Program-made: the position numbers and the translations under genes | From: Botryllus schlosseri | Taxonomy: Eukaryota | Direction: 5' to 3' | Length of the DNA: 64,000 nucleotides | Assembly (NCBI GenBank): GCA_051294905.1 | Contig: CM119372.1 | Location: 27,158,001 to 27,222,000 of the forward strand | Shown: positions 9,982 to 64,000 of the stretch, in pieces | Position numbering within the stretch: the stretch's first letter is position 1 | Layout: every line of letters begins with the position of its first letter | Notes under the pieces: model-generated | Seen by the model: the letters and a program-made list of their open reading frames with translations, nothing else | Told to the model about the DNA's origin: nothing | Databases searched by the model: none

Positions 9982-10556
9982 GTATACATGTCATGAGTCG
10001 GTGTATATGCCGCAAAGAAAACATCAAGGACAAAAATAAACTACATTCTTCCCTTTCCTTTGGCTTGCTTACTTTAGTGCTTATATTTTTAGACTACTTC
10101 CAAATCTACTTCTAAGTACTTAAGCAGGTTTTTCAACTTAGAGAAGTTAGTCGAGTGGTCATCATTTTAGTCTAGGGTGCTACTTATACTGAGCAGTGTT
10201 CAGTTTTCTAGGCAAAAAAACGCACTAAAAATATTCACTTTTGGACTTACACATGGAAATCTCTACTTGTTCTAGTTACTGTGTCCTTTTCCTTTTTGCC
10301 CCTATTGGCCGTTGAGTTGATCTTTTTTTCGCGTCGTATAAATTAAAATAAATTGGAATAAACCGTCATCAAGTGTATTTTTGACCATCACAGTTTTTTT
10401 TTTGTGGTAAATATGGTGTTTGTCGACTACTATGGTCATTTACACCGGGCCGATATTTTTCATTTTTTTCGTAACTGCCGACTTATAGCAGGGCCCACTT
10501 CTAGGCTTTTTGTAAGACACCGTTTACGCAGATGAGGTGGCGCGGAGTGGCTAGAT

Positions 10557-33800: not shown

Positions 33801-36800
33801 CGACTTCATTGAAATAGCCACGTTCAAAGGATGGGGATATGTTTGCAAATGAAGTACTGTTCACACTAAAATTAACGACCACAAAAACCTTATAAACTGG
33901 CAAGCAGGTAAAACAAGAGTAAATATATTTCTCAACTGATAGTTAATATCTATGATTCTTGTAGATTTCACGAAGTCTTAACGAAGCTTGTGGCTGTATT
34001 TTTCACAAAACATTTCGACATTATGATATCGTATCATTGGCCCTTCAGCACTCTATATTACTCTCTCAAACGAATTAGGAATACTTCACATTGTTTACGA
34101 CTTTCAGTGGATACACATTAATGTTTAGTTAAATATAAGTAGATAAACTCGGGTCATGTACAGATAGGATGCTCCAGAATTATCACCCCTCGTTGATAAT
34201 AATCGTGACAGATCTTCCTCCTATCAAAAAGTTATCGTCCTTTCTTCACGTCATACTCCATATTCGCTGAATACCATCTAACAGTCTCCATTTATCATAT
34301 TAGAGAACCAATACGTTTTATTATTCTATGACAAAAAGGGGTTTCAGGAGATATTGAAAGACCAGAAAATGACGAATGTGCTTTATAAGCTAAGTGGGTC
34401 ACCATTTCGTTTCCCTGAAGCTCGAAAAGTTTCGACCACATAAAAAGCTCTAGTATCAACGCTTATGTGAAATACCAGAAATAATTTTTCAATTCATAAA
34501 TACTATTTATTGGTGTATCTCATTCCCAATTGCAATCAGCACCAGTTTTGACGTTCTGGATCAGTCAATGTCAAGTATAGCAGAACACTGGGAACACTGG
34601 GCTGTTGAGGGATGCAATTGATGTCTCTGTGGCTGAGATTTTGGAAATGGCGACTATACAATCGGTAAAAACTTTGAATCTAGGCCGTGAGACATCGGTA
34701 TGCCCTGCATAACTCGCATAGGGCACAGCAACTTCAACATATCATGAATTATGCTCGCAGTCAGTCCCAGACCCGTCTAGTCACCGTCTACTTTGAACTG
34801 CGTACCGACAGGCTACATACGATGTCTAAGCGACATTTCTGTTACTTCACATAAGTGTTGATACTATGCTTTATGTTTGTAAACTTTGCAATCCTCACGA
34901 AAACCAAATAGTAACTCATATTAGTCAAATGGTATAGCATATCAGTCTTCTGGGTGACTTTCCTTACCACCTCAAATACATGATCAAAGTATAATTGAAA
35001 GCATCGGCGTTCTACTGGAGGAAAATTGTGATAATTATAATGAACCAAAGGCGAGATTCCTCGAGCATCCTATCGATACATGAGCCGAGTTCATCACATA
35101 TAATGAAGGATATCTAATTCTATTTAAAGTAAAAAATATATTCCATCAGTCACAATTCATTTGCGAGAAGATTATAGGAGTGCTGAAGAGCGAATAATAT
35201 TATATCATAATATCACAATGCATTGTGAAACACAGCCACAAATTTCGTTTAGATTTCGCGAAATCTATATTGGTCCGACGTAAAGTTCTTCTAAGTGTTG
35301 ACTCTCACTTGAGAAATATATTTACCCATATTTTACTTGCTTTTCAGTTTATTTGGTTTTCGTGGTCGTTAATTTTAGTGTGAAAAGTACTTTATTTGCA
35401 AATTATATCACCGTCCTTTGAACGTGACTATTTTAATGAAGTTGAATTCTTTCCAGCTAATCCGTGTCATATCTTTTTTTCGTTAACAGGCTATGTCCAT
35501 ATCCGAACTCTACCATAGGCCCTCATCAAGATGTAAACGGGTGGAAAAAGCATCCTGGCACCTGCAGGCATGGCTTGAACACGACTTTTCGTCATGTCGG
35601 AGTGACGAAATTTGCCACCGTGAATAGGCCTACTATTATTTAAAAAATGACCGAAATTTCAATTTGGAAGAACTCGGCTTCTACTGGTTGGAATTGAGTC
35701 GAATTTGTTGTGCAGCGTTTTTTAGGCAACCTCACGATTTAATCAGGTAGCAAGAAAGATCCGGAAAAAAGTTTTTTGAACAGCCCAACGCGCATATGTG
35801 CAAATATGCTGATGCCACTGCCTAAAACCACATTTTATTGATAACCCGGGTATATATGGGAAAGATATAATCTGATTTTTTTGCGGTTGTTTTTCACAAT
35901 ATCCCCGTGTGATCTATTGATACACTGGGAAAGTTTACGAAACGCAACCTTCAACAAATAGTTTGATTCGGAACAATTTTCTTGCATTCTCGGTATGAGA
36001 ATCATTATCCTCAACTCTGTGATATTTCCTTTTAACAGACGTGGACGAATGCTTTTGCGGAGACAACAGTGAAGGTAATAATAAATAACATAGGTGTCAG
36101 AAATAATGGGCTAATAGTCTAACACGGGCCCAATACAGAATAAATACGCAGGCACGTGTAGCAGAGTATGGTGCACTTTGTTGACAGGATAAAAATGTCT
36201 TGGCGGGAACGAACGAAATCGCCAATTAATCGAGACCTTGGATTCATCGCAAAAGAGCGAACACATACTACGTCTCTAGTGATCGAGTGAATTTTAGGGT
36301 AAGGGGGACACACTTCAAACCTCCACTGACTGGTCACAAGTGATTCAGGCTACTGTAGTTCCAACTCCAGAATGAATAATTGCTATTCTGCTTTTCCGGT
36401 CAGTAATGCCAGTTCGAATCATAGCTTCCTAAGCCAGCCCCCGGAACCGACTAGAGTAGGACAATCTTAAAAGTTACCACGTATATATACAGTGTGATGG
36501 TTTTTGTTTCGTCTTAAAAGCATAGCAACTGGTTAAATTATTTTCGAAGTTTAGACGTTGCGATCTCATTTGCTATAGATATTCGTTGATCCAAAGACTC
36601 ACTCACTGCTATATTAATTTAGTGTTGAAACTAGAAAATGATGGGCTGTAACAAAGTTTAGCTGAAGCCTTACCATGTCCAAGCAATTTACAGCTATATT
36701 TACAGCACTTGCTGCGGCCAAAAATATCTTTTCATCGACCGCAGGTAACCAGCGGAATACAATTGGGACATTGCTGATCCAACATCTCAGAGCTAAAGTA

Positions 36801-39800
36801 TGATCCTTTCAGGATGTTTCATAAATGAAATTAAAATGCTCCTAGGTCATATCGATAACGGCTGTTTTCGATGCTTGTCAAACCCCACGCAAATCATCGG
36901 AGTCTCCAGTGTGTGCGATGGATTCCTGGATTGCCACGATCTCAGTGACGAATGCCTCTGCCAGGCAGCTGAACGTCCCAAGATCTGCGAAAGAATGAAA
37001 TGGGGCATGGACTTCGTTCATTAATTTATATAGCGGTGACAAACAAGTAGGTTTTTTATTCAGGGATGCTGAATGCAACGGAAAATCGATCTTCACATTT
37101 AAGGTACACGAACGCAATCGATCAAAATTTGATGGATGGAAGTATGCGAAGATTTGTTTGCGATGAAAAGTCAGTAATCAGGAAATTCATATAAGCAATA
37201 TTGGTTTTCAATCAAGCGAAACGTCATTTTTGTGATGATTTATGTGACAATGCCCAATGACCTTAATTCAACTAAAAAATAAATAAAGTTCTGCTGAGTA
37301 GCGAGTCATTTCCGTGACATAAAATTTCGTTACACTGTTTTAAAGAGTGACTTTACTTATGTTTCTTGCAAGGAAACTGTGGGGTTTGGTCCGGGTCCAC
37401 AGTTATGGCTTAAGTTGGTTTAGCTTTGAGCTCAATATCGCACTATTGTTTCTGTTTACTATAACTGTAACGGTTGCCCGACATATGGGCATGCGACACA
37501 ATGGAAAACGACAGTTCAGCATGGAACACATCAGCATGCATCACTTCAGCATGTGACTGTATAACCCAAAAACTTACCCTAACCCGAAACATAGCCTAAC
37601 CCAGGGGTCGCCACCTCAAAACGGGTCGCGGGCCACTTTTCGAATTTCGTGCAGTCCGTGGACCGCAAAAATGTAATATGGAGACAAAATAGACCACACA
37701 CTCTCTAGCAGCCACGCTTTCAAAGCTTTCGTCAGTACAATGCTGTTCAATGAAATCTAAAGAAAAAGTTTTTTTTGAACAGCCCTAGTTCATGGACGAC
37801 GGGCGTAGTTACCACAAAGGAAGTAATAGTTTAATAAAGAAATACAAATACAACAATGGACATATCATGATCTTCAACGCTTTTCAGCGACTGCGGAATC
37901 GATATTAGGGTTACCGTGACACGGTACTAGCTGAAAGTCTTGTGGGGAATCCGTAATCCGTTCTGTAAGTGTCTTGGCAGTGTCTTGGTCATTGCACGTA
38001 AGGCACTCTGCCCATGCCCATTCATATCATCTGATTCTCCCTAGATGGCATGTTGTTGCCATCGCCGAAGCCATTGCATTTATTGAGGAATATAGTGATG
38101 TTGGTGGGCAATGGGCATACTTTGAAACAACTATATTTTAAAGCTGAAATAAATTTCAGCATCTCAAACTGCTTCACTTTTCGTTGTTCCAAAATCATAA
38201 ATCCTATCGCGGGCCGCAAAATATGACCTAGAGGGCCACATGCGGCCCGCGGGCCGCGTGTTGGTGACCCCTGGCCTAACCCAACCCAACCTAACCTAGC
38301 CTAACCTAACCTAAAGCCCAACCATAAATCCAACCCTAACCTACCCCTAACCCGTAATTTTACCCACATGCTCATGTGTCGCATGCCAAATTGTCGCATG
38401 CCGAAGTCTCGCATTCTCATATGTCCACGGACCAATTGTAACCCATAGCCAGTGTTGGGATCAAGTCACTACCTTCGAGTCACGAGTCATCTCGAGTCAT
38501 TGCACATTTTGACTCGAGTCAAGTCAAGTCAATCGATTTTCAAAGGTGACTCGAGTCAAGTCAAGTCAATCGTTTTTTGGAGGTGACTCGAGTCAAGTCG
38601 AGTCAAGTCAAGTCAAGTCACGAGTCAAGTCACGATTCAAGTCAAATTGAAATTTCGAAGTATGATTGATGATGCAAAGTCATTATATTTTGCTAACTAG
38701 ATTAAGGACAGATGAATTGGCCATTTATCTTGAATCAAATAACGAATATAAAGATAAATATACATGCGAAACGATGTTGCAGCACTCACGCAAACGTAGA
38801 GCTGCTAATAAAATATGCGAATAATTTTATAGTTACATCTACAGTCTGATTTTATCGGCCAATATTGAGTATCGAATACGAATCCTCGAGAAGTTGAAGA
38901 AATTGATGTGGTACAATACACCGCCCAAATACACATCCGTGAGAATATAAACGCGTAAACTATATTCGTTCGTTATATATCAAACAAGATGGTTGGTAAA
39001 GGTGAGCACATCCGCAATGTAAGCTCTGAGCCGTCTTAGAAACAAGGATACACGTTGCTATTAGATTAATCCAGGGTCGGCCAACCCGTGGCCCGCGGGC
39101 CACATGTGGCCCGCGAGAAGGTTTTGAGTGGCCCGCGAGGTAATTTCCGAAATTGGTAATGTTATAAAAATGAATTGCACGGATTGTGAACTTGCAATGC
39201 CAACCAAAAATTTGATTAGTCTGGAAGCAACACTTGAGATGTTATGACTAAAATATCAGTTACGACGCATTGGCATTTCCATGAGCCAGTCACACTTTGG
39301 TAGATCTTCGTACACTACAATAAAGCAGAATAATTTGCGATAAATATATCAAAAGTAAATATTTTCTACACGCTTCGCGCAACATTTTGTCACTCGATTT
39401 CTTGCTTTTAATATTGTTACCCCTTTGTGAAGATGAAAGAACGCTTAATGTATCAGATTGAGTCTAACTATATTCTCGATTACGAGACAAAGTGTCATGC
39501 GACCTAGCGTTTGCGCTCGCAGAAAGACCGTCGACTATGAAACCTAGGCACAAAACGATTGACGCATGTTGGTCGAAGCTTTCGAAATTGATATGTTCAG
39601 GCGCTGAATAGTCTAGTCCTGGCAAACTGAGCCCAGCGATATACTGCAGGCCTGCAATATAGTCAAGTGACTATTATTGAGCTATGGATGTCGAAAAAAT
39701 TTCGCGCTTCGCGCGGCTAGTGGCCCGCGCAATATTTCGTCGATCGAATGTGGCCCTTTGGCTGAAAAGGTTGACCAGCCCTGGATTAATCTATTGCTAC

Positions 39801-48800: not shown

Positions 48801-49941
48801 AATCCTCGATGTTCTTTGAATTTGTCTGTTTAATGGTATTAACGGCTAATCTGACATAACCTGTCATGTTAGAGTTTATATACACATTCATCGTTTGAGG
48901 AAGGTAAATGTGTAGCAGGAGGTGTCATTGCTAAATTTGTTGCCCGTTTAAACGCCACGACGGCCGCACCCCAAAACCCGAAATTGAGGAAGGGAGCTCG
49001 GAGGGGAATTATTTCGTAAATCAAGATAAAAAGGAGTATTTCAGAGATATTTCCTCAACTGACAATGTGTTATTTAAGTGATGAAAGTGATTCTATAAAA
49101 GTGGTTTACTCAATGAGGAGGGGGCGAAACGTTTTTTTAATCTTTCCCATGCACCCATTCCCAGGATGTGGATATGCAAAACGTTGTATGCGAAAAATGT
49201 GATTATTGGTTATTCTCTCATCAAATATTTAGGTATGCGACGGGTACAAGGATTGCTCATCTGGGTCTGATGAATGTCAGCCGGGATGCATTGAAAGTGC
49301 ATTTTCTGACGAGAAGTCGATGATTAAAAGCACAGGAGTCCTAGTTCTGGTGTGGACATTCAGTAAGTCACTTCGAAAAATCGACCGGGCTCGAGGTATT
49401 CGGACTGGGATAGGATTTCAATGAGGCTCGATATGTCGGGTTTACCAGGTTTGAATCGCTCGGGACAAAAATATTTTACAGATTCCAAATCTTACGTAGA
49501 TGATGTTCATGCTATACTCTGCTCTACTCTACTCTGCTTACTTTGCAGGTGTTACTGCCATTTTTGGATGTACATCAGTAGTTGGATCAAATTTACATGG
49601 CCTGTTGGAGAGCCCTAATGGAATTGTCACTTCATCGCATACCACCATCAACAGACTACTCATTATGAGTTTATCCGTTGCTGATTTGCTTGTTGGGGTA
49701 GGATACGTGTATACCTACTATATGCATTTACTGTACTAGTGTATCTGGTAAATACTCAGGTATACACGATTTCCATATGCATCAAGGCCGCGGTGTTCGA
49801 AGGCATATACTGCGACGTCGATGTCGAATGGAGAACAAGCACCGCCTGTTCAATGCTAGGCGCGCTATTAATCGTCGGATCAGAGCAATCCGTGTTTACA
49901 ATGGTTCTGATAACGATACATCGACTGCATGCTGTCATGAG
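12810..49941 (+). CDS. LDLa-repeat-containing rhodopsin-class GPCR (GRL101/RXFP/LGR-related 7TM, no LRRs seen); 18 exons, 3'-incomplete (ends after TM3)
   Basis: Exons read by hand: 12810-12867, 17555-17648, 19067-19209, 27519-27609, 29449-29591, 30033-30126, 30786-30934, 36039-36074, 36846-37004, 37064-37103, 41664-41707, 42574-42673, 44328-44408, 47181-47241, 48316-48408, 49233-49362, 49549-49697, 49760-49941. All junctions are AG/GT except one GC donor at 37005. Phases chain without a stop (1847 nt). Signal peptide MCWIYFLGLLMIITLPIMHA; LDLa motifs such as VCDGFLDCHDLSDECLC and VCDGYKDCSSGSDECQPGC; TM2 LSVADLLVGVY; TM3 WRTSTACSMLGALLIVGSEQSVFTMVLITIHRL. Confidence 0.88.
14383..15748 (-). 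mobile_element. Internally deleted hAT transposon containing the transposase remnant
   Basis: One end is GGACGGTACGGCAACCCTG (15748) with subterminal AATAAGGAC repeats. The degenerate opposite end near 14383 has the same AATAAGGAC motif. Confidence 0.6.
14683..15204 (-). pseudogene. Decayed hAT-superfamily transposase, N-terminal part
   Basis: Hand translation: MSKRKKVFRDGYERDF...AHCNIWNCDI...KHK...AAAAEG(frameshift)WAFHTVKHQQS...IFPYSNIANKFASARTKTTSIVTGVLAPYA...PFSVLVDASN. It has a degraded BED-like finger, ARTK and FSxxxDASN motifs, three stops and one frameshift. Confidence 0.8.
15748..15840. repeat. Short imperfect hairpin
   Basis: GAATCGAATCACCCAG...CTGGGTGATTCGATTC. Confidence 0.8.
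16432..17213. mobile_element. hAT MITE with 8-bp TSD TATATAGC
   Basis: TIR TAGGGTTCTGGTTTAAATC / GATTTAAACCAGAACCCTA. Confidence 0.92.
17555..19209 (+). CDS. GPCR LDLa cassette 1 (exons 17555-17648 and 19067-19209)
   Basis: GQNCSTEEFKCRDGLNCIPVVNFCDTVMDCS|DGSDEPAQIEKIDNSLYEVCRGRSEHRSGFCELPSDLEPDRQRLCRE, with canonical splice sites. Confidence 0.9.
17721..18401. mobile_element. MITE with a duplicated left end
   Basis: GGCGGAGATAATAAAGTT ... AACTTTATTATCTCCGCCCT; the left terminus is repeated at about 17721 and 17800. Confidence 0.8.
18536..18799. mobile_element. Small TIR element with CACTCTTAG termini, flanked by TA
   Basis: TA|CACTCTTAGCGAA ... TTCACTAAGAGTG|TA. Confidence 0.75.
20237..21923. 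mobile_element. hAT non-autonomous element with CTACTT repeats and 8-bp TSD CACACGGG
   Basis: TIR CAGAGGTGGTCA / TGACCACCTCTG. A partial second copy lies at about 26052-26320. Confidence 0.92.
20880..20950 (-). mobile_element. tRNA-like (SINE head) segment inside the hAT element
   Basis: The reverse strand reads TAGCGTAGTGG (A box) and GGTTCGATTCCC (B box), but the acceptor stem does not pair well. Confidence 0.6.
22599..25648. mobile_element. hAT element with GATTAC repeats and 8-bp TSD ATCTGCCC
   Basis: TIR CAGACATG / CATGTCTG with an exact TSD. Confidence 0.88.
24081..25063. mobile_element. hAT MITE with 8-bp TSD GTACGTAC
   Basis: TAGGGATGGTGTGAAC / GTTCACACAATCCCTG with an exact TSD. 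Confidence 0.92.
26616..27038. mobile_element. hAT-type MITE
   Basis: CAGGGGCACGCGAC...CGGCC start and GTTGCCCGCCCCTG end. Confidence 0.6.
27105..27304. mobile_element. MITE end with GGAGTC repeats
   Basis: (GGAGTC)n arrays ending CCGACTTCAAAGCCCTG. Confidence 0.65.
27519..29591 (+). CDS. GPCR LDLa cassette 2 (exons 27519-27609 and 29449-29591)
   Basis: MECSKEEFACRDGSMCIPVLHFCDTMKNCI|DESDEPRTYPMTENTLVNICRGRSEDQSGYCILPSDLEHDRLRLCRN. Paralogous to cassette 1, with the same 143-bp second exon. Confidence 0.9.
30033..30934 (+). CDS. GPCR LDLa cassette 3 (exons 30033-30126 and 30786-30934)
   Basis: STSCSPGEYACRDGSSCLHVSYFCDGFPSCK|DRSDEPRPLLDADSAGRLCMGRELSGTKPHPYCRLRDEEICDGLSICSN, with donors GTGAGC and GTAAGA. 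Confidence 0.9.
32474..32887. mobile_element. hAT-type MITE
   Basis: AGTGGTTTCCAAC ... GTTGAGAACCACTG termini. Confidence 0.7.
33465..35788. mobile_element. Fold-back element with diverged TIRs of about 600 bp and 8-bp TSD CGCGCATA
   Basis: About 33465-34075 is the reverse complement of about 35155-35788; termini GGGCTGTTCAAAAAA / TTTTTTGAACAGCCC. Confidence 0.88.
36039..37103 (+). CDS. GPCR exons 36039-36074, 36846-37004 and 37064-37103 (LDLa module plus linker)
   Basis: DVDECFCGDNSE|GHIDNGCFRCLSNPTQIIGVSSVCDGFLDCHDLSDECLCQAAERPKICERMKW|GMLNATENRSSHL. Confidence 0.8.
37602..38273. mobile_element. hAT MITE with 8-bp TSD GCCTAACC, inserted in a CCTAA-repeat element (about 37470-38435)
   Basis: TIR CAGGGGTCGCCA / TGGTGACCCCTG with an exact TSD. 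Confidence 0.9.
38450..40160. mobile_element. hAT element with GAGTCAAGTC repeats and 8-bp TSD CCCATAGC
   Basis: TIR CAGTGTTGGGAT / ATCCCAACACTG. Confidence 0.93.
39072..39783. mobile_element. Nested hAT MITE with 8-bp TSD GATTAATC
   Basis: CAGGGTCGGCCAACC / GGTTGACCAGCCCTG with an exact TSD. Confidence 0.92.
40310..40985. mobile_element. hAT MITE with 8-bp TSD CTTTAGTT; shorter relative at about 47826-48118
   Basis: TIR CAGTGGTTCTCAA / TTGAGAACCACTG. Confidence 0.92.
43158..43996. mobile_element. hAT-type MITE
   Basis: GGGTGGGCAAACTGCGGCTC ... CCTGCCCACCCCTA. Confidence 0.65.
44727..44752. repeat. (AT)n microsatellite
   Basis: About 13 AT units. Confidence 0.9.
48316..49941 (+). CDS. GPCR juxtamembrane LDLa module and TM1-TM3 exons (48316-48408, 49233-49362, 49549-49697, 49760-49941)
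   Basis: FHCDDEKVISEDS|VCDGYKDCSSGSDEC...GVLVLVWTF|SVTAIFGC...INRLLIMSLSVADLLVG|VYTISICIK...WRTSTACSMLG...SEQSVFTMVLITIHRLHAVM. The pattern is typical of the RXFP/GRL101 7TM domain. Confidence 0.92.
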
Positions 49942-50538
49942 GTTTGAATAGACACAGTGGTGTCGCCACATAAAGGCGGCAATGTGGTGTGAAATACTAT
50001 TGCGTTCTCAGCCGTTGGAAATTGGGCAATCCAATTAGTTAGTCATCTGCTAATTGGATCCATACAAAATATAGTAAGATATGCTATGACTAGAATACCA
50101 CGTGAATTCTACTGCGCAGCCACTATTTTCACTATTGATGACAGTTACCTCCGATAGTATAATCGGTAAGTTTCCCAATCCGACTCTGACCCTGTTTTAT
50201 TGAAGGACATTTGTAATCCCACCCGACTTCTAGTCGCGATCGCTGGAATTAGTATGATTTTCGTTCACAAAACTGAATATGCACAAAGTAAATTGAAGGA
50301 ATTTTATCGTTGTTTTCGTTGGAAGGAAATGAAACGTCAATGCTGCAAGAATATGGTTAGCAATGCATGGATCCTCAGCCCCATTCTGGGTCAGTCCAAA
50401 ATCTGCTAAGTCCCACCCAGGTGCACCATGGCGTCGGATTTATGCTGCACACAACTAGGTTGTTTAAGGAATTATTTTCATACGGGGTTGAAGTCATGAT
50501 GCGATATTGAACATGCAATAATGACTATTAGCCTATAT

Positions 50539-50910
50539 CAGAGGCGGCCAACCAGTGGCCCGCGAGGTAATTCACGAAATTAGTCATATCAAAAAAATAC
50601 CCGGATAATTCATTGTGAAGTTGCAAGGCCAACCAAAGTTTGGTAGCCTGACCGCAAAATTTGGGATGTTGATGACTAAGATATCTGTTCCGATACGTTT
50701 TCGTAGCAAGGGGCCAGCCACATTTTTCGTAGATCTTTCTATATGACCGCAGAGTAGAATATTTCTTGGAATATTTGTTTGACCTGATATTTTTCTTAGC
50801 ACATGTCGCGATTTATCGTCACTCGAAGTCTTGATTTTAGTATTACCTAGTAATACCTACAATTCACAGAATTGAGTCGAGCTATATTCACAATTATGAG
50901 ACAACACGTC
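50539..50910 (+). mobile_element. Left part of a MITE of the 39072-39783 family, interrupted at 50910
   Basis: Colinear with 39072-39495 (GTGGCCCGCGAGGTAATT...GTAGATCTT...GTCACTCGA...ATTGAGTC...GAGACAA), after which homology ends abruptly. Confidence 0.85.
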
Positions 50911-51963
50911 AGTAGTAGGATAAAGCAATTTTGTTGCCGGCCAATCCCAGAAGGCCACGTCGCCTTAATTGCCACGCCTACATTGCCACATCATCCGCCC
51001 ATTGCCACATCATCTGCTACGTCATCAGCCGCGGGCATTGCCACATCCAATGTATATTTGTATTAGTGAAATGCGTCTTGATAATATTAGTCAGATTTTC
51101 TATTATGTGTATTTAGGACTATGTATTTAAATTCCTATTCAGATTATACATAAATGCGAAAACTATGATGTATATGCAAGGCTATATTCTCCGGATAATA
51201 TTATTAATATCAAAATTCTACACATCATCACTAATTACTTAATATAAAATGCGATTTTGAGCGCTGCGACTTGATAATATGAATCTCTACGCTTCTGATG
51301 CATGATTTTTTGCGATAAGGACCTAGGTAACATTCAGAGTCTGCAACGATTGTTTGGATATACATTATAGCAATACCCCACTAAACTATAGGCGGTTATA
51401 TTACTCTATTGGTCAGAGATAACTCATCCGTCCATATTTTTAAACTTGATTTTATGTATACAAGTTACGGTCTCTGCAGCCTCCACATTTTACGACTTAT
51501 TTTTATTAGACGCAGGCAAGCGGTTCTCCAGTTCGTAGCTACGGAAACAAATCACTCGCATGTGCGCGTTCCGAATAGTCTTGTAGAATTTTCTAAAGTC
51601 GTAACAGCTTAGCAGCATATACGCGAATCCCCAGGCGAAAATAATCGAACGAACTATAGCCGCAGGCGTGCGATTCGCAGGGCTTTAATTATATAAACAC
51701 TTTCGATACCTGTACGCGAACCCCAGCGTTATAACGATTGCTATAATTAAACGAACACCTTCGCGGCAGGTACGCGATCCCCGACGTTATAATGATAGGG
51801 ACAAATTAGCCGCATGAAAGCGAGTCTAATGAATATAACGACAGACAACAAGTTAGTTGAAAAGTAAAACTAATCGTGACCGACGCAAGACGGTGTGAAA
51901 CAGCGCTTTCGCTCGATTCTTTCTTGACATATAATATACTGAGCATATAAAAAGCTGGCAAAA

Positions 51964-52410
51964 CCTATACTTGAGTACTCCGAAATGTACAAGTACTTTA
52001 CCTTTACACGACGTTTTTGTAAAATGAATACTAATTTCAATGAAAAATAAAAAAATATGTACTCAAGTAGGTTTTTGTCTACACGCACCAACTACTCAAG
52101 TGTTTATGACACAGGAATGATTCATGAATTATAGCGCAAGCAGGCCAAATCTATACTTGAGTACTCCAAAATGTAAAAGTACTTCCACCTATACTTGAGT
52201 AGTCCGAAATGTACAAGTACTTTACCTTTACACGACGTTTTGTAAAATGAATACTAATTTCAATGAAAAATAAAAAATTATGTACTCAAGTAGGTTTTTG
52301 TCTACACGCACCAACTACTCAAGTGTTTATGACACAGGAATGATTCATTAAGTATAGCGCAAGCAGGCCAAATCTATACTTGAGTACTCCAAAATGTACA
52401 AGTACTTCGC
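51964..52410 (+). repeat. Tandem duplication of about 224 bp built on a CTATACTTGAGTACTCC motif
   Basis: Units start at about 51964 and 52188. Further local duplications at about 52460/52641 and 52885/53085. Confidence 0.85.
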
Positions 52411-54299
52411 TATGTACTCTCTCCACGTAAAAAGTGACTAGGTTTTAGACTACTTTATCGATTTTCGATGTTGCGCAAATACCGCAAACTTTGCTTGCTT
52501 TCAGAGCTGGCAACTAAATGCAAGACAGACTTAAGTTTGGATGCGGCATATTTAGGTTTTTAAAAATTATTCATACCCATGTTTCGAAATATTGTTAACT
52601 AACTTATGTTTTCGATATAAGATAAGCGTGAAGTGTACAAATTTCGATGTTGTGCAAATACCACAAACTTTGCTTGCTTTCAGAGCCGACAACTAAATGC
52701 AAGACAGACTTCACGCAAAAGTTGATATTCTGAAAATTTTGGCTAGTTAATAGTTTAAAAACTTATACTTCAGCACTACGAAATGTACAAGTACTTTACC
52801 TATACACGACGTTTTTGTAAAATGAATACTAATTTTAAGAAAAAATAAAAAAAAGAGCGAAAAACTACCTTTTATCACGCTAATCCCCACCGTGAAACTT
52901 GGTACGCAGTTGTAGGACAATATGAAAATACACCATACCAAATTTCGTCAGACATTTCATGATGTAACACCTTTAAAACCAACGCAGTTCTATACCGACT
53001 TTTGGCCTAATCTGTTTTCCGTAACGCAGCACGTACGTATACATAGACAACTTTAAAACGGAATTACCATGTTAATAATCGACTCCCCCACCTTGAAACT
53101 CGGTACGCAGTTGTAAGACATTATGACAATGTACCATATTAAATTTTGTTACGCATTTCATGATTAAACAACTTTAAAACTAACGCAGTTCTATACCGAC
53201 ATTTGCGTGAATCTGTTTTGCGGGAGCGTAGCACATACCTATACTTCGGATTTTGTATAGTATATACTAATTTTACATTGCGGGGTATTCAGTAAACTTT
53301 AATCCAGTGATCCTCCATCTATTTTCAATCACGCTCCTCTTATTAGTCTAGGCTTCCAACCCCACATCCAGTACGTATTTACCTACTAAGTACCTATTTC
53401 CGACTAAGTAAAACGTCAGTATTCCAGGTATTTTCTGCTTAATTCTGAAACTATAATGGATTTGAAGCAGTACAATATCATAAACACTTGAGAATATTTG
53501 CTGCATGTAGGTAAAAAACGTACTTGAGTACTCGGAAGAAGTCGATACTTACTTGTTTAGCCGCTCGGACATCATCACTTATTGTACTTTACTAGAAATT
53601 TACTGCTGATAAATGAGTGTAATACCACGAAGTGAGACTTCGAAACTATATCGTCAGTTCTCCGGGACCAAATATCGTGTTAAGTGTTAAGTTGTTGTAT
53701 TATGTAGCTATAGTAATTGGTACACGTAAGCTCAGGATCGAACCAACTTGTGTTAACTTGCGTTATTATGTACCTAGTAATTGATGCGAGTAATCCCGCA
53801 ACTGATGCTGTTCAATGCCTTTACTGCGTTCTTACCAAGCACCTAGACAGCCCCAAGCAATATTTTTAGATTCAAATATAGCGTATCGAGTACTTTTTCT
53901 CAACTGTAATAAAAACTTTTAGACTCCGGATTTTGTGTAGTAGGCTATATACTAATTTACAATACCGCATTTGTAATTCGCGCAAGTACAGGAATATCAT
54001 AGTTCTTGTAAGAAAGTTGTCTGCGCACAATATATGTTAATCATAAGTCCTACAAATTCATGATTTCGTCCTAGTTTAAGTTTTAGAAAATATTATACCG
54101 ACATCGCGACATCTTTCAAAAACAAAACCATGATCAAGGATTGAAAGATAATTTTTGCTATTTTTCATTGACATAAGTCATTCTGGAACGCGAAAACGCA
54201 TTGTACGATATAGATGAAACTTAAGCAAATCCTAGGATCCTCATTTCCAAAGTAGCTTAGATCTCGAAATAAGCTTTGACTCGCTATTCTCCTCAAGCC

Positions 54300-54945
54300 A
54301 TGGAATCATCACGAGTATCAGCACCTTCGATCACTGAAGAAAAGGATGAAATTATATCCGAAACATATTCCTTGACCAGGAATTTTATCATGTACGAACT
54401 CGACGGGTCATGCGTTAAGGTAAATACGAAAGCAGAGAGAACCTTACGTCAAGTTGGAGATGAAATGCTCGAGCGACATCGAACAGTCCTAAACGCAGTT
54501 TCCAAACGTCTCCGCTATAGTGATGTTGAAGTCAATGAAAAATATAAAGAATATTTACCCGATGAGCGGCTGTTCCTGATGCTAGCTGATGAAATTTTCA
54601 AAGATACCAAAGAAAATTGGGGGAGGATTGTCTGCCTTTTTGTGCTCGGTAGCATTCTTGCTCGCAAAAACGAGGATGAACATCACGGGGAGCATATAGA
54701 AGCTATCATACAGACAATTGGGAATTACATTGCTAGCAGAAGACTAAAGTGGATAGTGCGAAATGGAGGATGGGTAGGTGATTTACATGCTTCGCTTAGG
54801 ATTTATAAATTATCTTCTATTTTTGTTACAGGATGGCTTTGTAGGATTTTTTGATAATGCCGCTTTCGACTACAATAAAGTTTGGAAGGGACTCGTGTTT
54901 GTTGGAATCGGACTGACATCTATAGCAATGGCATTATCAAGATAA
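54300..54945 (+). CDS. Bcl-2 family apoptosis regulator, MCL1/A1-like, 195 aa, 2 exons (54300-54773, 54832-54945)
   Basis: BH3-like LRQVGDEM, BH1 NWGRIVCLFVLG, BH2 WIVRNGGW|DGFVGFF split by a 58-bp GT-AG intron at the conserved GGW^D position, and a C-terminal membrane anchor VWKGLVFVGIGLTSIAMALSR. AATAAA at 54984. Confidence 0.93.
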
Positions 54946-54983
54946 TGGATGTTCGCATGTTTTATCTCATGTAATATTTTAAG

Positions 54984-54989
54984 AATAAA
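54984..54989 (+). terminator. Probable polyadenylation signal of the Bcl-2-like gene
   Basis: AATAAA about 40 nt after the stop codon, mirrored at 62180-62185. Confidence 0.55.
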
Positions 54990-55948
54990 ATTCTTCATCG
55001 TTAATCGCATCCATTTTACTGTAGGATGTATACAGTTTCAGTATGAATGATGGGTCCTATGGTGCTTGACGAAAGAAGTTGGTCATCTATTCTATATTCC
55101 GAAATAATCAAGTTTGTGATTTTTTAGCAGCACCTAGCCTCATATAAACTTTAATAGAATCACTTATAACTCATCAGTTTACTCAAGTAAATCTAATTTG
55201 ATACTCGAGCACTGAACCTTAATTTTCCAGCAGTATGATAGACACCCTCCGATGGTACTCAACATCGTGCAATTCTGCTCGAATACAAGTACAAGTAGAG
55301 ATTTCAAAGTAAGTAAGTAACTGGTTATGTTTGTAGACTATAACTCCACTTCTATCGTTCAGAAAGGAAAGGACGTAGTTTATTTTTGTCCTTGATGTTT
55401 GAGATGTTGAGCAGAGAAGTACATGTACTTCTTTAAAGTACTCAAGTAGGCTAAAATGCCAAGCTACCTTGTAACTAAGGCTACTATTTGTCATAATAAC
55501 TACTATGAGCGCACAATTAGCTTGTTCAAAATCTCCAAATTCCAGGGATTCACTGATTGAATTGATATGTATTGAATTAAAATAATGCTGCCTACGAAAT
55601 TTGCTAGATGTGAACGCATTTTTATCAAAATGTTCAAATTTCACTGACAACCTCTTGAAATTGTTGCAGTGTCTAAAACAGAGATCTCAAACATGCGGCT
55701 CGCGAACCGTCAATTTAATAAACCGTCGAACAATCAGGGTTGGAGACAAGATTTTTCCGTTCTATGTCATGACAATACCAACAAACACCGTGTAAAGTTT
55801 CAAGGTTGTCATTCGATGATTAAGGAATTAAGAAAACTACTTCTACTAAACTTCTGGACTTTTACTAAACTTATACACTGCATCTGATCAAGTATAGATA
55901 GAAAAGCAAAGCTAATATAAAATTCCGCGAAGTACCGATTCTGTAACT

Positions 55949-57318
55949 ACTGTAAGTAGGCAAACCTTAGCTGAGTATACTCCGAAAAAACAGGAGTAAT
56001 TCGTTACTCACCAAATAAATGGATATCATTCAATATGAGTGGCGTTAGGATATCCGTCAAATACTTTCCGTTATTCTATAGAAGTTGCGTTTCTGACTAC
56101 TTAAAAGTTGCTAGAGCTCATGCTATTTTATCGTCGTATCGATGTTCGTTTTGAAAAGTAGCATGCTCAATGGTTCATGTTCACATTATTCAGTTAAATT
56201 AGGTTTTGCGCAAAGAAAAAGGACTGTAAGTAGGCAAACCTTAGCTGAGTATACTCCGAAAAAACAGGAGTAATTCGTTACTCACCAAATAAATGGATAT
56301 CATTCAATATGAGTGGCGTTAGGATATCCGTCAAATACTTTCCGTTATTCTATAGAAGTTGCGTTTCTGACTACTTAAAAGTTGCTAGAGCTCATGCTAT
56401 TTTATCGTCGTATCGATGTTCGTTTTGAAAAGTAGCATGCTCAATGGTTCATGTTCACATTATTCAGTTAAATTAGGTTTTGCGCAAAGAAAAAGGACTG
56501 TAAGTAGGCAAACCTTAGCTGAGTATACTCCGAAAAAACAGGAGTAATTCGTTACTCACCAAATAAATGGATATCATTCAATATGAGTGGCGTTAGGATA
56601 TCCGTCAAATACTTTCCGTTATTCTATAGAAGTTGCGTTTCTGACTACTTAAAAGTTGCTAGAGCTCATGCTATTTTATCGTCGTATCGATGTTCGTTTT
56701 GAAAAGTAGCATGCTCAATGGTTCATGTTCACATTATTCAGTTAAATTAGGTTTTGCGCAAAGAAAAAGGACTGTAAGTAGGCAAACCTTAGCTGAGTAT
56801 ACTCCGAAAAAACAGGAGTAATTCGTTACTCACCAAATAAATGGATATCATTCAATATGAGTGGCGTTAGGATATCCGTCAAATACTTTCCGTTATTCTA
56901 TAGAAGTTGCGTTTCTGACTACTTAAAAGTTGCTAGAGCTCATGTTATTTTATCGTCGTATCGATGTTCGTTTTGAAAAGTAGCATGCTCAATGGTTCAT
57001 GTTCACATTGTTCAGTTAAATTAGGTTTTGCGCAAAGAAAAAGGACTGTAAGTAGGCAAACCTTAGCTGAGTATACTCCGAAAAAAACAGGAGTAATTCG
57101 TTACTCACCAAATAAATGGATATCATTCAATATGAGTGGCGTTAGGATATCCGTCAAATACTTTCCGTTATTCTATAGAAGTTGCGTTTCTGACTACTTA
57201 AAAGTTGCTAGAGCTCATGCTATTTTATCGTCGTATCGATGTTCGTTTTGAAAAGTAGCATGCTCAATGGTTCATGTTCACATTGTTCAGTTAAATTAGG
57301 TTTTGCGCAAAGAAAAAG
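55949..57318 (+). repeat. Tandem array, 5 x 274 bp (left arm)
   Basis: Units starting ACTGTAAGTAGGCAAACCTTAGC at 55949, 56223, 56497, 56771 and 57045; near-identical. Confidence 0.97.
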
Positions 57319-59850
57319 AAAATTCACGCAAAAGTCGCTATTGCTCCGTGATGATTTTGATGTTGTTCCATACCGATTTGGGAGGTAGTACACCTAATTT
57401 CGTAAAGTACACAGAAAACTACTTCTACTAAATTCCTACACTTCTAAACTTCTACACTGAATCTTGTAAAGTATATAGAAAAGGAAAGCCAACGAATAAT
57501 TCATGAAGTTCCGATAGGCTATATTTGAGGTAATGATTCCCGTGCGAATGAAAAGTAAGTAGAGAAGCTTAGCATATCAACGATATCGTTGCCAGTCATT
57601 GCGTCGATTCGCTGCTTGAAATCCTCAAGATCGATTGATGTTTCGAGGTTTCGCGGTTTCGCTTTGCTGTCATCCGTACGAGCAGAATGTCTGGATTAGG
57701 AACAACTACGCCAGGACCATTAATGCTTTCGATACAGTGCAATATGAATAGCGCTACGTTGATCAATTCAAATTCAACAATGGCTCCCGCGCACGATTAT
57801 GTAGCCGGATTTTCGTTGAATATTGACGACACCCACAAACCTAAAGATCTCTTTCCCCTTCACATCTATGATAGAGTTATCACTCCAATGACTACGAATA
57901 ACTTGAGATTCCGTCGGATTAATATCCGAATCAAATAATACCAGAGTATCTTTTCCGACTTTTAAAACCCGCACTGTCGCGTTCGGCCTATGTCGCAACA
58001 CCACAATATGCGGCCATACAAAACGATGAATAGTAGCTTTTTGTAGTACCATATCTGCGAGATATTTTCAGTTGGGTGTAATTTCACGCTGCTCACCAAT
58101 TTACAGCTCACAGTGCAACTGAATTGGCGTTCATACTAATTCTACATAATTTTTGCATGTCAGGCAATTACATCAGCAGTAAAACGCCGGCGGCTACTCA
58201 TTTGAAGCTTGTTAGTATCTGAGATAAATGGCGCTCAAGCGTAGCATGGAATCGCTAATACACCATACCAAATTTCGTCAGACATGTCATGATGTAACAC
58301 CTTTAAAAACCAACGCAGTTCTATACAGACTTTTGATGCAATAGCGATTACACAGTAAGTAACTAACTGAATATGTTTGTAGACTATATCTCCACTTCTA
58401 CCATTCAGAGATGTTGAGCACATAAGTATATGTACTTCTTCAAAGTACTCAAGTAGCTTTTCGTAGGATATAGATGACACTGACAACACTCACCAAGACC
58501 ACTGGTCCACTGAAAAAAGTACATTGTAGCAGTAAAGTCCTACTAAAGTACAAGAAGTAATGATTTCCCAGTTAGTTAAAAAGTAAGTATTGCAGGTATA
58601 GTTTGATCGAAAAAGCGAAAAACTCTGAAATAGAAGTAGATGCAGTGTAAATAGGTAACACTTCATTGAGTATAGCGCAAGCAGGCCAAACCTATACTGG
58701 AGTACTCCAAAATGTACAAGTACTTCGCTAATGTAGTAAGCAGGCCGATATGAAGATATTCGTTGAGCTGAATGAACATAAAAATACTCCCGTGCCCCGA
58801 AATTTATGTATAATCTGAATTGTATTTTCTGGAGGGAAAGTATTATCTAGCGTATAATGAATGTTATTTATTTTTTGGAATATTAGTCCTAAATACACAT
58901 AATAGAATATCTAAGGGAAGTATCGAAGTTTCATAATAAACATGAAAATACCTGGTGTCGTTGAGTTGAATAAACATAAAAAAATAAACATAAAAAAATT
59001 TTTGCCTGACATGCAAAAATTATGTAGAATTAGTATGAACGCCAATTCAGTTGCACTGTGAGCTGTAAATTGGTGAGCAGCGTGAAATTACACCCAACTG
59101 AAAATATCTCGCAGATATGGTACTACAAAAAGCTACTATTCATCGTTTTGTATGGCCGCATATTGTGGTGTTGCGACATAGGCCGAACGCGACAGTGCGG
59201 GTTTTAAAAGTCGGAAAAGATACTCTGGTATTATTTGATTCGGATATTAATCCGACGGAATCTCAAGTTATTCGTAGTCATTGGAGTGATAACTCTATCA
59301 TAGATGTGAAGGGGAAAGAGATCTTTAGGTTTGTGGGTGTCGTCAATATTCAACGAAAATCCGGCTACATAATCGTGCGCGGGAGCCATTGTTGAATTTG
59401 AATTGATCAACGTAGCGCTATTCATATTGCACTGTATCGAAAGCATTAATGGTCCTGGCGTAGTTGTTCCTAATCCAGACATTCTGCTCGTACGGATGAC
59501 AGCAAAGCGAAACCGCGAAACCTCGAAACATCAATCGATCTTGAGGATTTCAAGCAGCGAATCGACGCAATGACTGGCAACGATATCGTTGATATGCTAA
59601 GCTTCTCTACTTACTTTTCATTCGCACGGGAATCATTACCTCAAATATAGCCTATCGGAACTTCATGAATTATTCGTTGGCTTTCCTTTTCTATATACTT
59701 TACAAGATTCAGTGTAGAAGTTTAGAAGTGTAGGAATTTAGTAGAAGTAGTTTTCTGTGTACTTTACGAAATTAGGTGTACTACCTCCCAAATCGGTATG
59801 GAACAACATCAAAATCATCACGGAGCAATAGCGACTTTTGCGTGAATTTT

Positions 59851-61220
59851 CTTTTTCTTTGCGCAAAACCTAATTTAACTGAACAATGTGAACATGAACC
59901 ATTGAGCATGCTACTTTTCAAAACGAACATCGATACGACGATAAAATAGCATGAGCTCTAGCAACTTTTAAGTAGTCAGAAACGCAACTTCTATAGAATA
60001 ACGGAAAGTATTTGACGGATATCCTAACGCCACTCATATTGAATGATATCCATTTATTTGGTGAGTAACGAATTACTCCTGTTTTTTTCGGAGTATACTC
60101 AGCTAAGGTTTGCCTACTTACAGTCCTTTTTCTTTGCGCAAAACCTAATTTAACTGAACAATGTGAACATGAACCATTGAGCATGCTACTTTTCAAAACG
60201 AACATCGATACGACGATAAAATAACATGAGCTCTAGCAACTTTTAAGTAGTCAGAAACGCAACTTCTATAGAATAACGGAAAGTATTTGACGGATATCCT
60301 AACGCCACTCATATTGAATGATATCCATTTATTTGGTGAGTAACGAATTACTCCTGTTTTTTCGGAGTATACTCAGCTAAGGTTTGCCTACTTACAGTCC
60401 TTTTTCTTTGCGCAAAACCTAATTTAACTGAATAATGTGAACATGAACCATTGAGCATGCTACTTTTCAAAACGAACATCGATACGACGATAAAATAGCA
60501 TGAGCTCTAGCAACTTTTAAGTAGTCAGAAACGCAACTTCTATAGAATAACGGAAAGTATTTGACGGATATCCTAACGCCACTCATATTGAATGATATCC
60601 ATTTATTTGGTGAGTAACGAATTACTCCTGTTTTTTCGGAGTATACTCAGCTAAGGTTTGCCTACTTACAGTCCTTTTTCTTTGCGCAAAACCTAATTTA
60701 ACTGAATAATGTGAACATGAACCATTGAGCATGCTACTTTTCAAAACGAACATCGATACGACGATAAAATAGCATGAGCTCTAGCAACTTTTAAGTAGTC
60801 AGAAACGCAACTTCTATAGAATAACGGAAAGTATTTGACGGATATCCTAACGCCACTCATATTGAATGATATCCATTTATTTGGTGAGTAACGAATTACT
60901 CCTGTTTTTTCGGAGTATACTCAGCTAAGGTTTGCCTACTTACAGTCCTTTTTCTTTGCGCAAAACCTAATTTAACTGAATAATGTGAACATGAACCATT
61001 GAGCATGCTACTTTTCAAAACGAACATCGATACGACGATAAAATAGCATGAGCTCTAGCAACTTTTAAGTAGTCAGAAACGCAACTTCTACAGAATAACG
61101 GAAAGTATTTGACGGATATCCTAACGCCACTCATATTGAATGATATCCATTTATTTGGTGAGTAACGAATTACTCCTGTTTTTTCGGAGTATACTCAGCT
61201 AAGGTTTGCCTACTTACAGT
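59851..61220 (-). repeat. Tandem array, 5 x 274 bp (right arm, inverted)
   Basis: Reverse complement of 55949-57318, including unit-specific variants. Confidence 0.97.
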
Positions 61221-62223
61221 AGTTACAGAATCGGTACTTCGCGGAATTTTATATTAGCTTTGCTTTTCTATCTATACTTGATCAGATGCAGTGTATAAGT
61301 TTAGTAAAAGTCCAGAAGTTTAGTAGAAGTAGTTTTCTTAATTCCTTAATCATCGAATGACAACCTTGAAACTTTACACGGTGTTTGTTGGTATTGTCAT
61401 GACATAGAACGGAAAAATCTTGTCTCCAACCCTGATTGTTCGACGGTTTATTAAATTGACGGTTCGCGAGCCGCATGTTTGAGATCTCTGTTTTAGACAC
61501 TGCAACAATTTCAAGAGGTTGTCAGTGAAATTTGAACATTTTGATAAAAATGCGTTCACATCTAGCAAATTTCGTAGGCAGCATTATTTTAATTCAATAC
61601 ATATCAATTCAATCAGTGAATCCCTGGAATTTGGAGATTTTGAACAAGCTAATTGTGCGCTCATAGTAGTTATTATGACAAATAGTAGCCTTAGTTACAA
61701 GGTAGCTTGGCATTTTAGCCTACTTGAGTACTTTAAAGAAGTACATGTACTTCTCTGCTCAACATCTCAAACATCAAGGACAAAAATAAACTACGTCCTT
61801 TCCTTTCTGAACGATAGAAGTGGAGTTATAGTCTACAAACATAACCAGTTACTTACTTACTTTGAAATCTCTACTTGTACTTGTATTCGAGCAGAATTGC
61901 ACGATGTTGAGTACCATCGGAGGGTGTCTATCATACTGCTGGAAAATTAAGGTTCAGTGCTCGAGTATCAAATTAGATTTACTTGAGTAAACTGATGAGT
62001 TATAAGTGATTCTATTAAAGTTTATATGAGGCTAGGTGCTGCTAAAAAATCACAAACTTGATTATTTCGGAATATAGAATAGATGACCAACTTCTTTCGT
62101 CAAGCACCATAGGACCCATCATTCATACTGAAACTGTATACATCCTACAGTAAAATGGATGCGATTAACGATGAAGAATTTTATTCTTAAAATATTACAT
62201 GAGATAAAACATGCGAACATCCA

Positions 62224-62869
62224 TTATCTTGATAATGCCATTGCTATAGATGTCAGTCCGATTCCAACAAACACGAGTCCCTTCCAAACTTTATTGTAGT
62301 CGAAAGCGGCATTATCAAAAAATCCTACAAAGCCATCCTGTAACAAAAATAGAAGATAATTTATAAATCCTAAGCGAAGCATGTAAATCACCTACCCATC
62401 CTCCATTTCGCACTATCCACTTTAGTCTTCTGCTAGCAATGTAATTCCCAATTGTCTGTATGATAGCTTCTATATGCTCCCCGTGATGTTCATCCTCGTT
62501 TTTGCGAGCAAGAATGCTACCGAGCACAAAAAGGCAGACAATCCTCCCCCAATTTTCTTTGGTATCTTTGAAAATTTCATCAGCTAGCATCAGGAACAGC
62601 CGCTCATCGGGTAAATATTCTTTATATTTTTCATTGACTTCAACATCACTATAGCGGAGACGTTTGGAAACTGCGTTTAGGACTGTTCGATGTCGCTCGA
62701 GCATTTCATCTCCAACTTGACGTAAGGTTCTCTCTGCTTTCGTATTTACCTTAACGCATGACCCGTCGAGTTCGTACATGATAAAATTCCTGGTCAAGGA
62801 ATATGTTTCGGATATAATTTCATCCTTTTCTTCAGTGATCGAAGGTGCTGATACTCGTGATGATTCCAT
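62224..62869 (-). CDS. Second, inverted copy of the MCL1-like Bcl-2 family gene (exons 62869-62396, 62337-62224)
   Basis: Mirror image of 54300-54945 (coordinate sum 117169). The ORF track gives an identical translation for both copies. Confidence 0.93.
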
Positions 62870-64000
62870 GGCTTGAGGAGAATAGCGAGTCAAAGCTTAT
62901 TTCGAGATCTAAGCTACTTTGGAAATGAGGATCCTAGGATTTGCTTAAGTTTCATCTATATCGTACAATGCGTTTTCGCGTTCCAGAATGACTTATGTCA
63001 ATGAAAAATAGCAAAAATTATCTTTCAATCCTTGATCATGGTTTTGTTTTTGAAAGATGTCGCGATGTCGGTATAATATTTTCTAAAACTTAAACTAGGA
63101 CGAAATCATGAATTTGTAGGACTTATGATTAACATATATTGTGCGCAGACAACTTTCTTACAAGAACTATGATATTCCTGTACTTGCGCGAATTACAAAT
63201 GCGGTATTGTAAATTAGTATATAGCCTACTACACAAAATCCGGAGTCTGAAAGTTTTTATTACAGTTGAGAAAAAGTACTCGATACGCTATATTTGAATC
63301 TAAAAATATTGCTTGGGGCTGTCTAGGTGCTTGGTAAGAACGCAGTAAAGGCATTGAACAGCATCAGTTGCGGGATTACTCGCATCAATTACTAGGTACA
63401 TAATAACGCAAGTTAACACAAGTTGGTTCGATCCTGAGCTTACGTGTACCAATTACTATAGCTACATAATACAACAACTTAACACTTGTAAAACACGATA
63501 TTTGGTCCCGGAGAACTGACGATATAGTTTCGAAGTCTCACTTCGTGGTATTACACTCATTTATCAGCAGTAAATTTCTAGTAAAGTACAATAAGTGATG
63601 ATGTCCGAGCGGCTAAACAAGTAAGTATCGACTTCTTCCGAGTACTCAAGTACGTTTTTTACCTACATGCAGCAAATATTCTCAAGTGTTTATGATATTG
63701 TACTGCTTCAAATCCATTATAGTTTCAGAATTAAGCAGAAAATACCTGGAATACTGACGTTTTACTTAGTCGGAAATAGGTACTTAGTAGGTAAATACGT
63801 ACTGGATGTGGGGTTGGAAGCCTAGACTAATAAGAGGAGCGTGATTGAAAATAGATGGAGGATCACTGGATTAAAGTTTACTGAATACCCCGCAATGTAA
63901 AATTAGTATATACTATACAAAATCCGAAGTATAGGTATGTGCTACGCTCCCGCAAAACAGATTCACGCAAATGTCGGTATAGAACTGCGTTAGTTTTAAA

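Follow-up and report, generated by a model that had tools for sequence, protein, structure and literature searches.

A host-derived Bcl-2 gene as probable cargo of a gene-poor palindromic element with Maverick/Polinton-type ends in a colonial ascidian

The small Bcl-2-family gene at 54300–54945 of the Botryllus schlosseri window (the whole 64-kb stretch of DNA analysed here) raises the question of whether it belongs to the animal's own apoptosis repertoire or travels with a mobile element. A lone invertebrate Bcl-2 gene with an intron in BH2 would be ordinary; what matters is the setting, in which the gene appears as the intact, spliced and amplified cargo of a palindromic element. We put at roughly 0.6 the probability that a host-derived pro-survival Bcl-2 gene is the cargo of an element that is poor in genes, palindromic over almost its whole length and bounded by ends of the Maverick/Polinton type. 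The evidence is presented from the gene outwards.

Gene model and splicing

The two-exon model proposed in the original prediction was borne out on the plus strand, with ATG at 54300, a stop codon ending at 54945 and a spliced product of 195 aa. The gene and its signals are:

54300–54773, plus strand: exon 1 of Bcl-2-family gene copy 1, 158 aa, with helix 1, BH3 (LRQVGD), BH1 (NWGR) and BH2 ending in GGW
54774–54831, plus strand: intron of 58 nt, phase 0, GT..AG, after the BH2 tryptophan (from the sequence and four spliced reads of RNA run X23)
54832–54945, plus strand: exon 2 of copy 1, with the rest of BH2, the C-terminal membrane anchor and the stop; it can be aligned to the tail that splicing gives in Styela P0002
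54984–54989, plus strand: AATAAA, a candidate polyadenylation signal (from the sequence and the drop in X23 sense depth downstream)

Removal of the intron joined GGW to DGFVGFF and a hydrophobic tail in copy 1, the best 19-residue Kyte-Doolittle mean being 1.78 for the spliced tail versus 1.02 for the read-through tail. Among the 18 GT..AG combinations tried nearby, 54774–54831 gave the longest product and was the only pair to keep GGW followed by a DGF-like motif and the anchor. BH3, BH1 (NWGR) and BH2 (GGW) follow each other in order in the protein, ahead of the C-terminal anchor. The description of the gene as hidden by the ORF track was too strong, the 184-aa open reading frame spanning all BH motifs and missing the tail alone. 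Likewise, the motifs first quoted for it, LRRVGD and DGFVEFF, are not those of copy 1, which reads LRQVGD and DGFVGFF, but their letters are present in sibling copies.

The claim of a conserved intron held well: its position is that of the ancestral BH2 intron of pro-survival Bcl-2 genes (PMC8998228). According to the accessible part of that paper, the coding region of these genes is split at the GGW tryptophan from sponge to mouse and the anchor is placed on the last exon; the window gene, with two coding exons split at the BH2 GGW, has this layout of pro-survival members. V follows GGW in 190 of the 246 homologues with a scorable BH2 (from a set of 286 proteins), as expected, because gene callers read on into the GT donor.

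When RNA reads were inspected for the intron, four reads of run X23 with two start places were found to skip exactly 58 nt with GT..AG ends. Since the BH2 intron was retained, the gene did not go through a spliced mRNA, and the suggested origin at the DNA level rather than by retroposition is supported by an ancestral intron that is both present and spliced. A retrocopy or processed gene was ruled out on these grounds.

A pyrimidine tract with AG lies at 54288–54299, just 5' of the ATG, where an upstream exon or a trans-splice site is possible. No splice joint was listed at this place, and some sibling contigs share the same ATG after a different upstream sequence.

Identity, ancestry and rate of change of the protein

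The family assignment was confirmed with the PF00452 profile (E=8.8e-22; 78 bits against a curated cut-off of 31.4; profile positions 1–100 covered). A word-based protein search (27 candidates) returned no relative; an HMMER scan and an alignment search found relatives. The structure model of exon 1 (pLDDT 79) showed the Bcl-2 helical fold, and a Foldseek search gave 178 chains at E<=0.001, all listed matches being Bcl-2-family proteins with TM of about 0.56–0.69. The best PDB sequence matches were Mcl-1 (E=4.8e-10), MCL1 was not ranked first in the fold search, and the closest named protein was the Styela clava bcl-2-like protein 2 (XP_039252627), with 48% identity over the core.

The tree was built from 69 rows chosen from 286 proteins, over 142 columns. 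The window gene, P0169 and P0152 nested with Styela in a nine-row ascidian-type clade (100/99), in which the window group was sister to P0166/P0167 with a stem of 0.43 versus 0.064; this placement points to a stolidobranch ascidian as the source. Support for the position of the ascidian clade next to the vertebrate MCL1, A1 and Bcl-B-like rows was modest (91/85). The best tree did not join it to MCL1 alone; a tree constrained to do so was not rejected (p-AU 0.152). Of the original designation as MCL1-like, the neighbourhood of MCL1, A1 and Bcl-B-like rows remains, but an MCL1-only grouping did not appear in the best tree and the quoted motifs proved family-wide. Naming the gene MCL1 by motif was ruled out, such motifs being common to the Bcl-2 family; 'MCL1/A1/NR13-like, pro-survival type' is a fair designation.

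Vertebrate MCL1 has similar letters in BH3 and after BH2 as well as the same intron position, but its identity to the window protein in structural alignments is 22–23%, and it has a long PEST-bearing N-terminus that the window protein lacks. The Styela clava protein shares the clade, the GGW-then-anchor layout and a similar tail; it differs in being 241 aa long, in having 44 additional residues ahead of BH3 and in bearing a PEST-like segment, and the window family evolves several times faster. Counted up to BH3, the window protein has 48 residues, Styela 92, mouse MCL1 126 and bird MCL1 161. PEST-like segments, scored with our own implementation of the PEST score, reached 7.9 in Styela, 6.5 in bird MCL1 and 8.2 in mouse MCL1, and none was present in the window protein. 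The short N-terminus without PEST noted at the outset was therefore real and shorter even than that of Styela, but the comparison with vertebrate MCL1 was unsuited to it, since shortness is common among homologues: 141 of 271 have 115 residues or fewer before NWGR, many of these being gene-caller fragments. The scores of P0166 and P0167 were 0.4 and 2.2, and both proteins are probably cut at an exon boundary. Trimming of the N-terminus with loss of the PEST-like segment relative to the host gene is plausible from the sequence comparison, and the more stable inhibitor suggested at the outset might be a consequence.

In a relative-rate test with Styela as the outgroup, the window gene had 31 unique changes and P0166 had seven (p=1e-4). 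For the window family as a whole, unique changes outnumbered those of P0166–P0168 by factors of 3 to 22, with p<0.002 in nine of nine comparisons. Faster protein evolution than in the host-type relatives is thus shown for the sequences compared, synonymous differences being still in excess.

These data bear on the reading in which the gene belongs to an ordinary host family of Bcl-2 paralogues spread by segmental duplication, with a local inverted duplication here and AGTAGT placed beside it by chance. The host-type exon layout and the ascidian ancestry agree with such an origin, but the long stem branch compared with the slower relatives does not. We infer that a separate host orthologue exists in the same genome; in the most likely reading, the window gene is not the MCL1 of the animal itself but a captured host gene whose spread is due to a mobile element.

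The palindrome and its candidate end

A second copy of the gene, absent from the original prediction, was found on the minus strand in the opposite arm of a palindrome, letter for letter identical to copy 1 when read from 62869 to 62224. No further Bcl-2 fragments were found in the 64-kb window beyond these two copies. The parts of the putative element are:

50905–50910, plus strand: six bases before the terminus, a candidate target-site duplication, its partner outside the window
50911–51110, plus strand: candidate left terminus, AGTAGT and then four TGCCAC within 200 nt, with the (AGT)2 motif as given in the accessible text of PMC8097293; the mirror end lies outside the window
50911–58167: left palindrome arm, mirror verified for 53173–58167 only
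55949–57318: tandem array of five 274-nt units, left arm
57522–58052, minus strand: three overlapping open frames of 92, 66 and 58 aa, with their mirror at 59117–59647 on the plus strand
58168–59001: spacer of 834 nt, non-mirrored, with short pieces resembling arm sequence
59002–64000: right arm, running off the window, with its end predicted near 66262 if symmetric
59851–61220: tandem array of five 274-nt units, right arm
62224–62869, minus strand: copy 2 of the Bcl-2-family gene, with the same sequence as copy 1 (exon 1 62869–62396, intron 62395–62338, exon 2 62337–62224)

Mirror pairing covers 53173–58167, and the outer 2.26 kb of the left arm is without a partner in the window. Over about 5 kb, two substitutions and one 4-nt indel are the only differences between the segments 53173–58167 and 59002–64000. 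Such 99.9% identity of the arms, together with the identical gene copies, could point to copy 2 as an assembly artefact, produced by a fold-back long read or an uncollapsed haplotype, with one gene at the locus. We hold this to be highly improbable: the arms do differ at the places named and enclose 834 nt of distinct sequence, and the same gene with the intron read-through is present in an independent assembly (P0269). Even an artefact at this locus would leave the multi-copy family intact.

The 274-nt units are arranged head to tail, are 99% identical and share motifs with a 223-nt duplication at 51963–52408 and with the spacer pieces. The three frames at 57522–58052 and their mirror at 59117–59647 are possibly one broken gene; for the 92-aa frame (57774–58052), searches of Pfam, PHROGs, the ESM Atlas, viral contigs and longer proteins gave no match. 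The arm also contains, at 55362–55400, a 39-nt insertion derived from a dispersed repeat, with another occurrence at 10019–10057; it attracts most of the X23 reads aligned to the stretch.

The (AGT)2 motif of Maverick/Polinton 5' ends is present at 50911–50916. By itself the AGTAGT hexamer is weak, with 12 occurrences in the preceding 50.9 kb, and this density of 0.24 per kb suits a chance placement next to duplicated host paralogues. The region directly after it is structured, however, containing four TGCCAC in 200 nt versus 0.03 expected, which argues against such chance. These repeats may resemble the nuclear-factor-I half sites of adenovirus origins. The boundary is also abrupt: the similarity of 50911–59001 to the 50.9 kb on its left is limited to one 39-nt repeat, and a GPCR-like (receptor-like) frame on the left stops at 50911, a break that an ordinary paralogue family would not lead one to expect. 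If the palindrome is symmetric, its sequence implies an element of about 15.35 kb with the right end near 66262.

On the left, scattered exons of a gene bearing LDL-receptor-A domains extend over about 19000–50910 on the plus strand (Pfam Ldl_recept_a at 29906–30127 and 36797–37021), with receptor-like hydrophobic frames containing stops at 49500–50406. By its motifs this is presumably a GRL101/relaxin-receptor-like GPCR gene; it is probably decayed, and its last exon seems to be interrupted by the element. Two other features lie in this flank: a remnant of a hAT transposase dimerisation domain at 610–846 on the minus strand (Pfam E=6e-4, below the cut-off), and an older inverted repeat pair at 33466–34221 and 35017–35786 (about 780 nt, 78% identity), probably a decayed DNA transposon.

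No pPolB, integrase, ATPase, protease or capsid gene was seen in the arm and spacer, with 13 kb of the element visible, and the Bcl-2 gene is the sole ATG open reading frame longer than 95 aa in 50900–59500; the arm frames tried against Pfam and PHROG gave no match. An autonomous Maverick was rejected, the replication, integration and capsid genes being absent from the part seen. A 16-nt pattern of the terminus matched three IMG/VR contigs with nothing meaningful among them; only one (L002) could be aligned to the window, through 21 nt that form the end of a phage gene, and this was rejected as chance. A 23-nt pattern had no match in metagenome contigs. The terminal 200 nt folded no better than shuffles (z +1.17). 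No relatives of the Bcl-2 gene were found in viral contigs or in JGI metagenome contigs.

That no transposase, polymerase or capsid gene was seen in the arms would suit segmental duplication of a host paralogue, and so would the large gene-bearing palindromes described for one colonial ascidian assembly, which in the available portion of that paper are many-gene syntenic blocks in a genome with 46% unclassified repeats (PMC12448946). The word 'maverick' has no occurrence in that paper. Set against this are the structured terminus, the break at 50911, the long stem and the very many divergent copies with variable flanks found in the DNA run X1; we judge an ordinary paralogue family decidedly improbable.

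A family of copies and what a mobile Bcl-2 gene would mean

The locus is not single-copy, in keeping with the initial idea of cargo: besides the two copies in the window, 9531 contigs of X1 aligned over 2.7 kb around the gene, one variant being present in up to 70 contigs, and relatives from independent assemblies (P0269, P0169, P0001 and P0152) were found in databases at 80–93% identity. Summed over the gene, the X1 depth exceeds that of 55500–55940 by a factor of about 28, a ratio that does not equal copy number.

A mobile element may be real and its Bcl-2 gene still be a drifting passenger, captured once and amplified with it, the copy here being silent and of no benefit. Accelerated protein change would follow from such drift, and so would the signs of decay: frameshifting indels occur at four places in the CDS at 6–9% of X1 depth, and P0001 and P0169, which lie on contigs of 4016 nt each, appear to be the halves of one split copy. 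Copy 1 itself has several private amino-acid changes. The comparison of copies gave a different picture, with nine synonymous and nine non-synonymous sites among the 18 in the CDS (pN/pS 0.28, p=0.008; based on the 18 CDS rows among 40 variant rows shown of 127), and this excess of synonymous differences argues against a gene drifting freely. BH1, BH2, the splice sites and the anchor are intact in copy 1 and in P0269, and X1 contigs at 90% likeness cover the gene much more deeply than its flanks. Hence, the family is partly maintained and partly decaying.

Transcription was assessed mainly in RNA run X23, of which about 3/100 was read (22 million reads), 287 reads aligning to the stretch. Expression was low; the 39-nt dispersed repeat, which lies outside the gene, took up most of these reads. 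Within 54330–55049 about 95% of the depth was in one orientation, the sense one; sense depth peaked at 54870–54959 on exon 2, just before AATAAA at 54984, and then fell. The window letter was found in 0 of 9, 0 of 9 and 0 of 12 reads at 54845, 54849 and 54859, and the reads thus come from sibling copies or alleles. That no RNA read carries the letters of copy 1 at these three sites, at such low expression, favours the silent passenger, but the sibling copies are transcribed from the sense strand and spliced, which does not. Weighing both sides, we consider a passenger without benefit unlikely. In run X22 three reads aligned and none fell on the gene; run X15 covers all 30 bins including the flanks and was excluded as RNA evidence.

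The letter giving DGFVEFF, as in MCL1, was present at 54845 in nine of nine X23 RNA reads and in 26% of the X1 DNA depth, the two runs being from different samples. Judged by these letters, only some of the copies may be expressed.

For the cargo reading, the following course of events can be proposed. The last two exons of a host gene would have been captured as DNA, by the element itself or earlier by an ancestral autonomous Maverick, and a Met close to the beginning of the large exon would have taken over as start codon, so that the longer PEST-like N-terminus was dropped. A fold-back duplication of one element end would have created the palindrome and doubled the gene. Copying and insertion in trans by an autonomous Maverick is proposed because polymerase and integrase genes are absent from the 13 kb seen. 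The protein would anchor in the mitochondrial outer membrane, bind BH3 helices of Bax/Bak-type partners and keep cells alive during activity of the element or of its helper, and this survival is the proposed reason for retention of the cargo.

Parts of this arrangement are known from other systems, as far as the accessible parts of the sources describe them. Bcl2 and IAP homologues are accessory genes in adintoviruses (PMC8502044), and the window element shares with Mavericks/Polintons and adintoviruses the (AGT)2 candidate left end, a predicted size near 15 kb and the Bcl-2 accessory gene (PMC8097293, PMC8502044). It differs from them in the absence of core genes from the part seen, in an inverted repeat that would span about the whole element instead of short TIRs, and in a Bcl-2 gene that bears an intron and is present twice. 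Host-derived cargo with introns is likewise known from nematode Mavericks, where it lies near the TIR, a few kb in from the left end, but there it consists of proteases and kinases in largely complete Mavericks and not of Bcl-2 in a gene-poor palindrome (10.1101/2022.07.12.499685). The closest match for how the window gene may work is vNr-13 of the herpesvirus of turkeys, a captured Bcl-2 homologue of 179 aa that has two exons, has kept its intron and occurs in two identical copies within inverted repeats; that virus is autonomous, the activity of vNr-13 has been demonstrated, and the element type is unrelated (PMC7199394). The part of PMC6431247 at hand mentions Bcl-2 only in an LTR retrotransposon. 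Altogether, adintoviral Bcl-2 homologues and Maverick cargo with introns have both been published before, and no published palindromic, gene-poor, non-autonomous Maverick with Bcl-2 cargo was found in a survey whose scope excluded most subscription papers and Repbase.

If the cargo reading is right, it would show that Maverick satellites can retain a host-manipulating gene after the loss of every replication gene, and it would give a countable set of copies for measuring selection for the benefit of the element. Counts and expression of ascidian apoptosis genes would then be dominated by mobile cargo and not by host orthologues. A bolder proposal, which we put forward as speculation and think quite unlikely, is that helper-dependent palindromic Maverick satellites made a trimmed, fast-evolving Bcl-2 a selfish survival factor, biasing which cells escape programmed death. 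Were it true, the many expressed Bcl-2 copies would amount to a drive at the level of cells in a colonial ascidian whose stem cells compete and in which apoptosis recurs in cycles, and selfish Bcl-2 would also reshape the apoptosis repertoire of the host.
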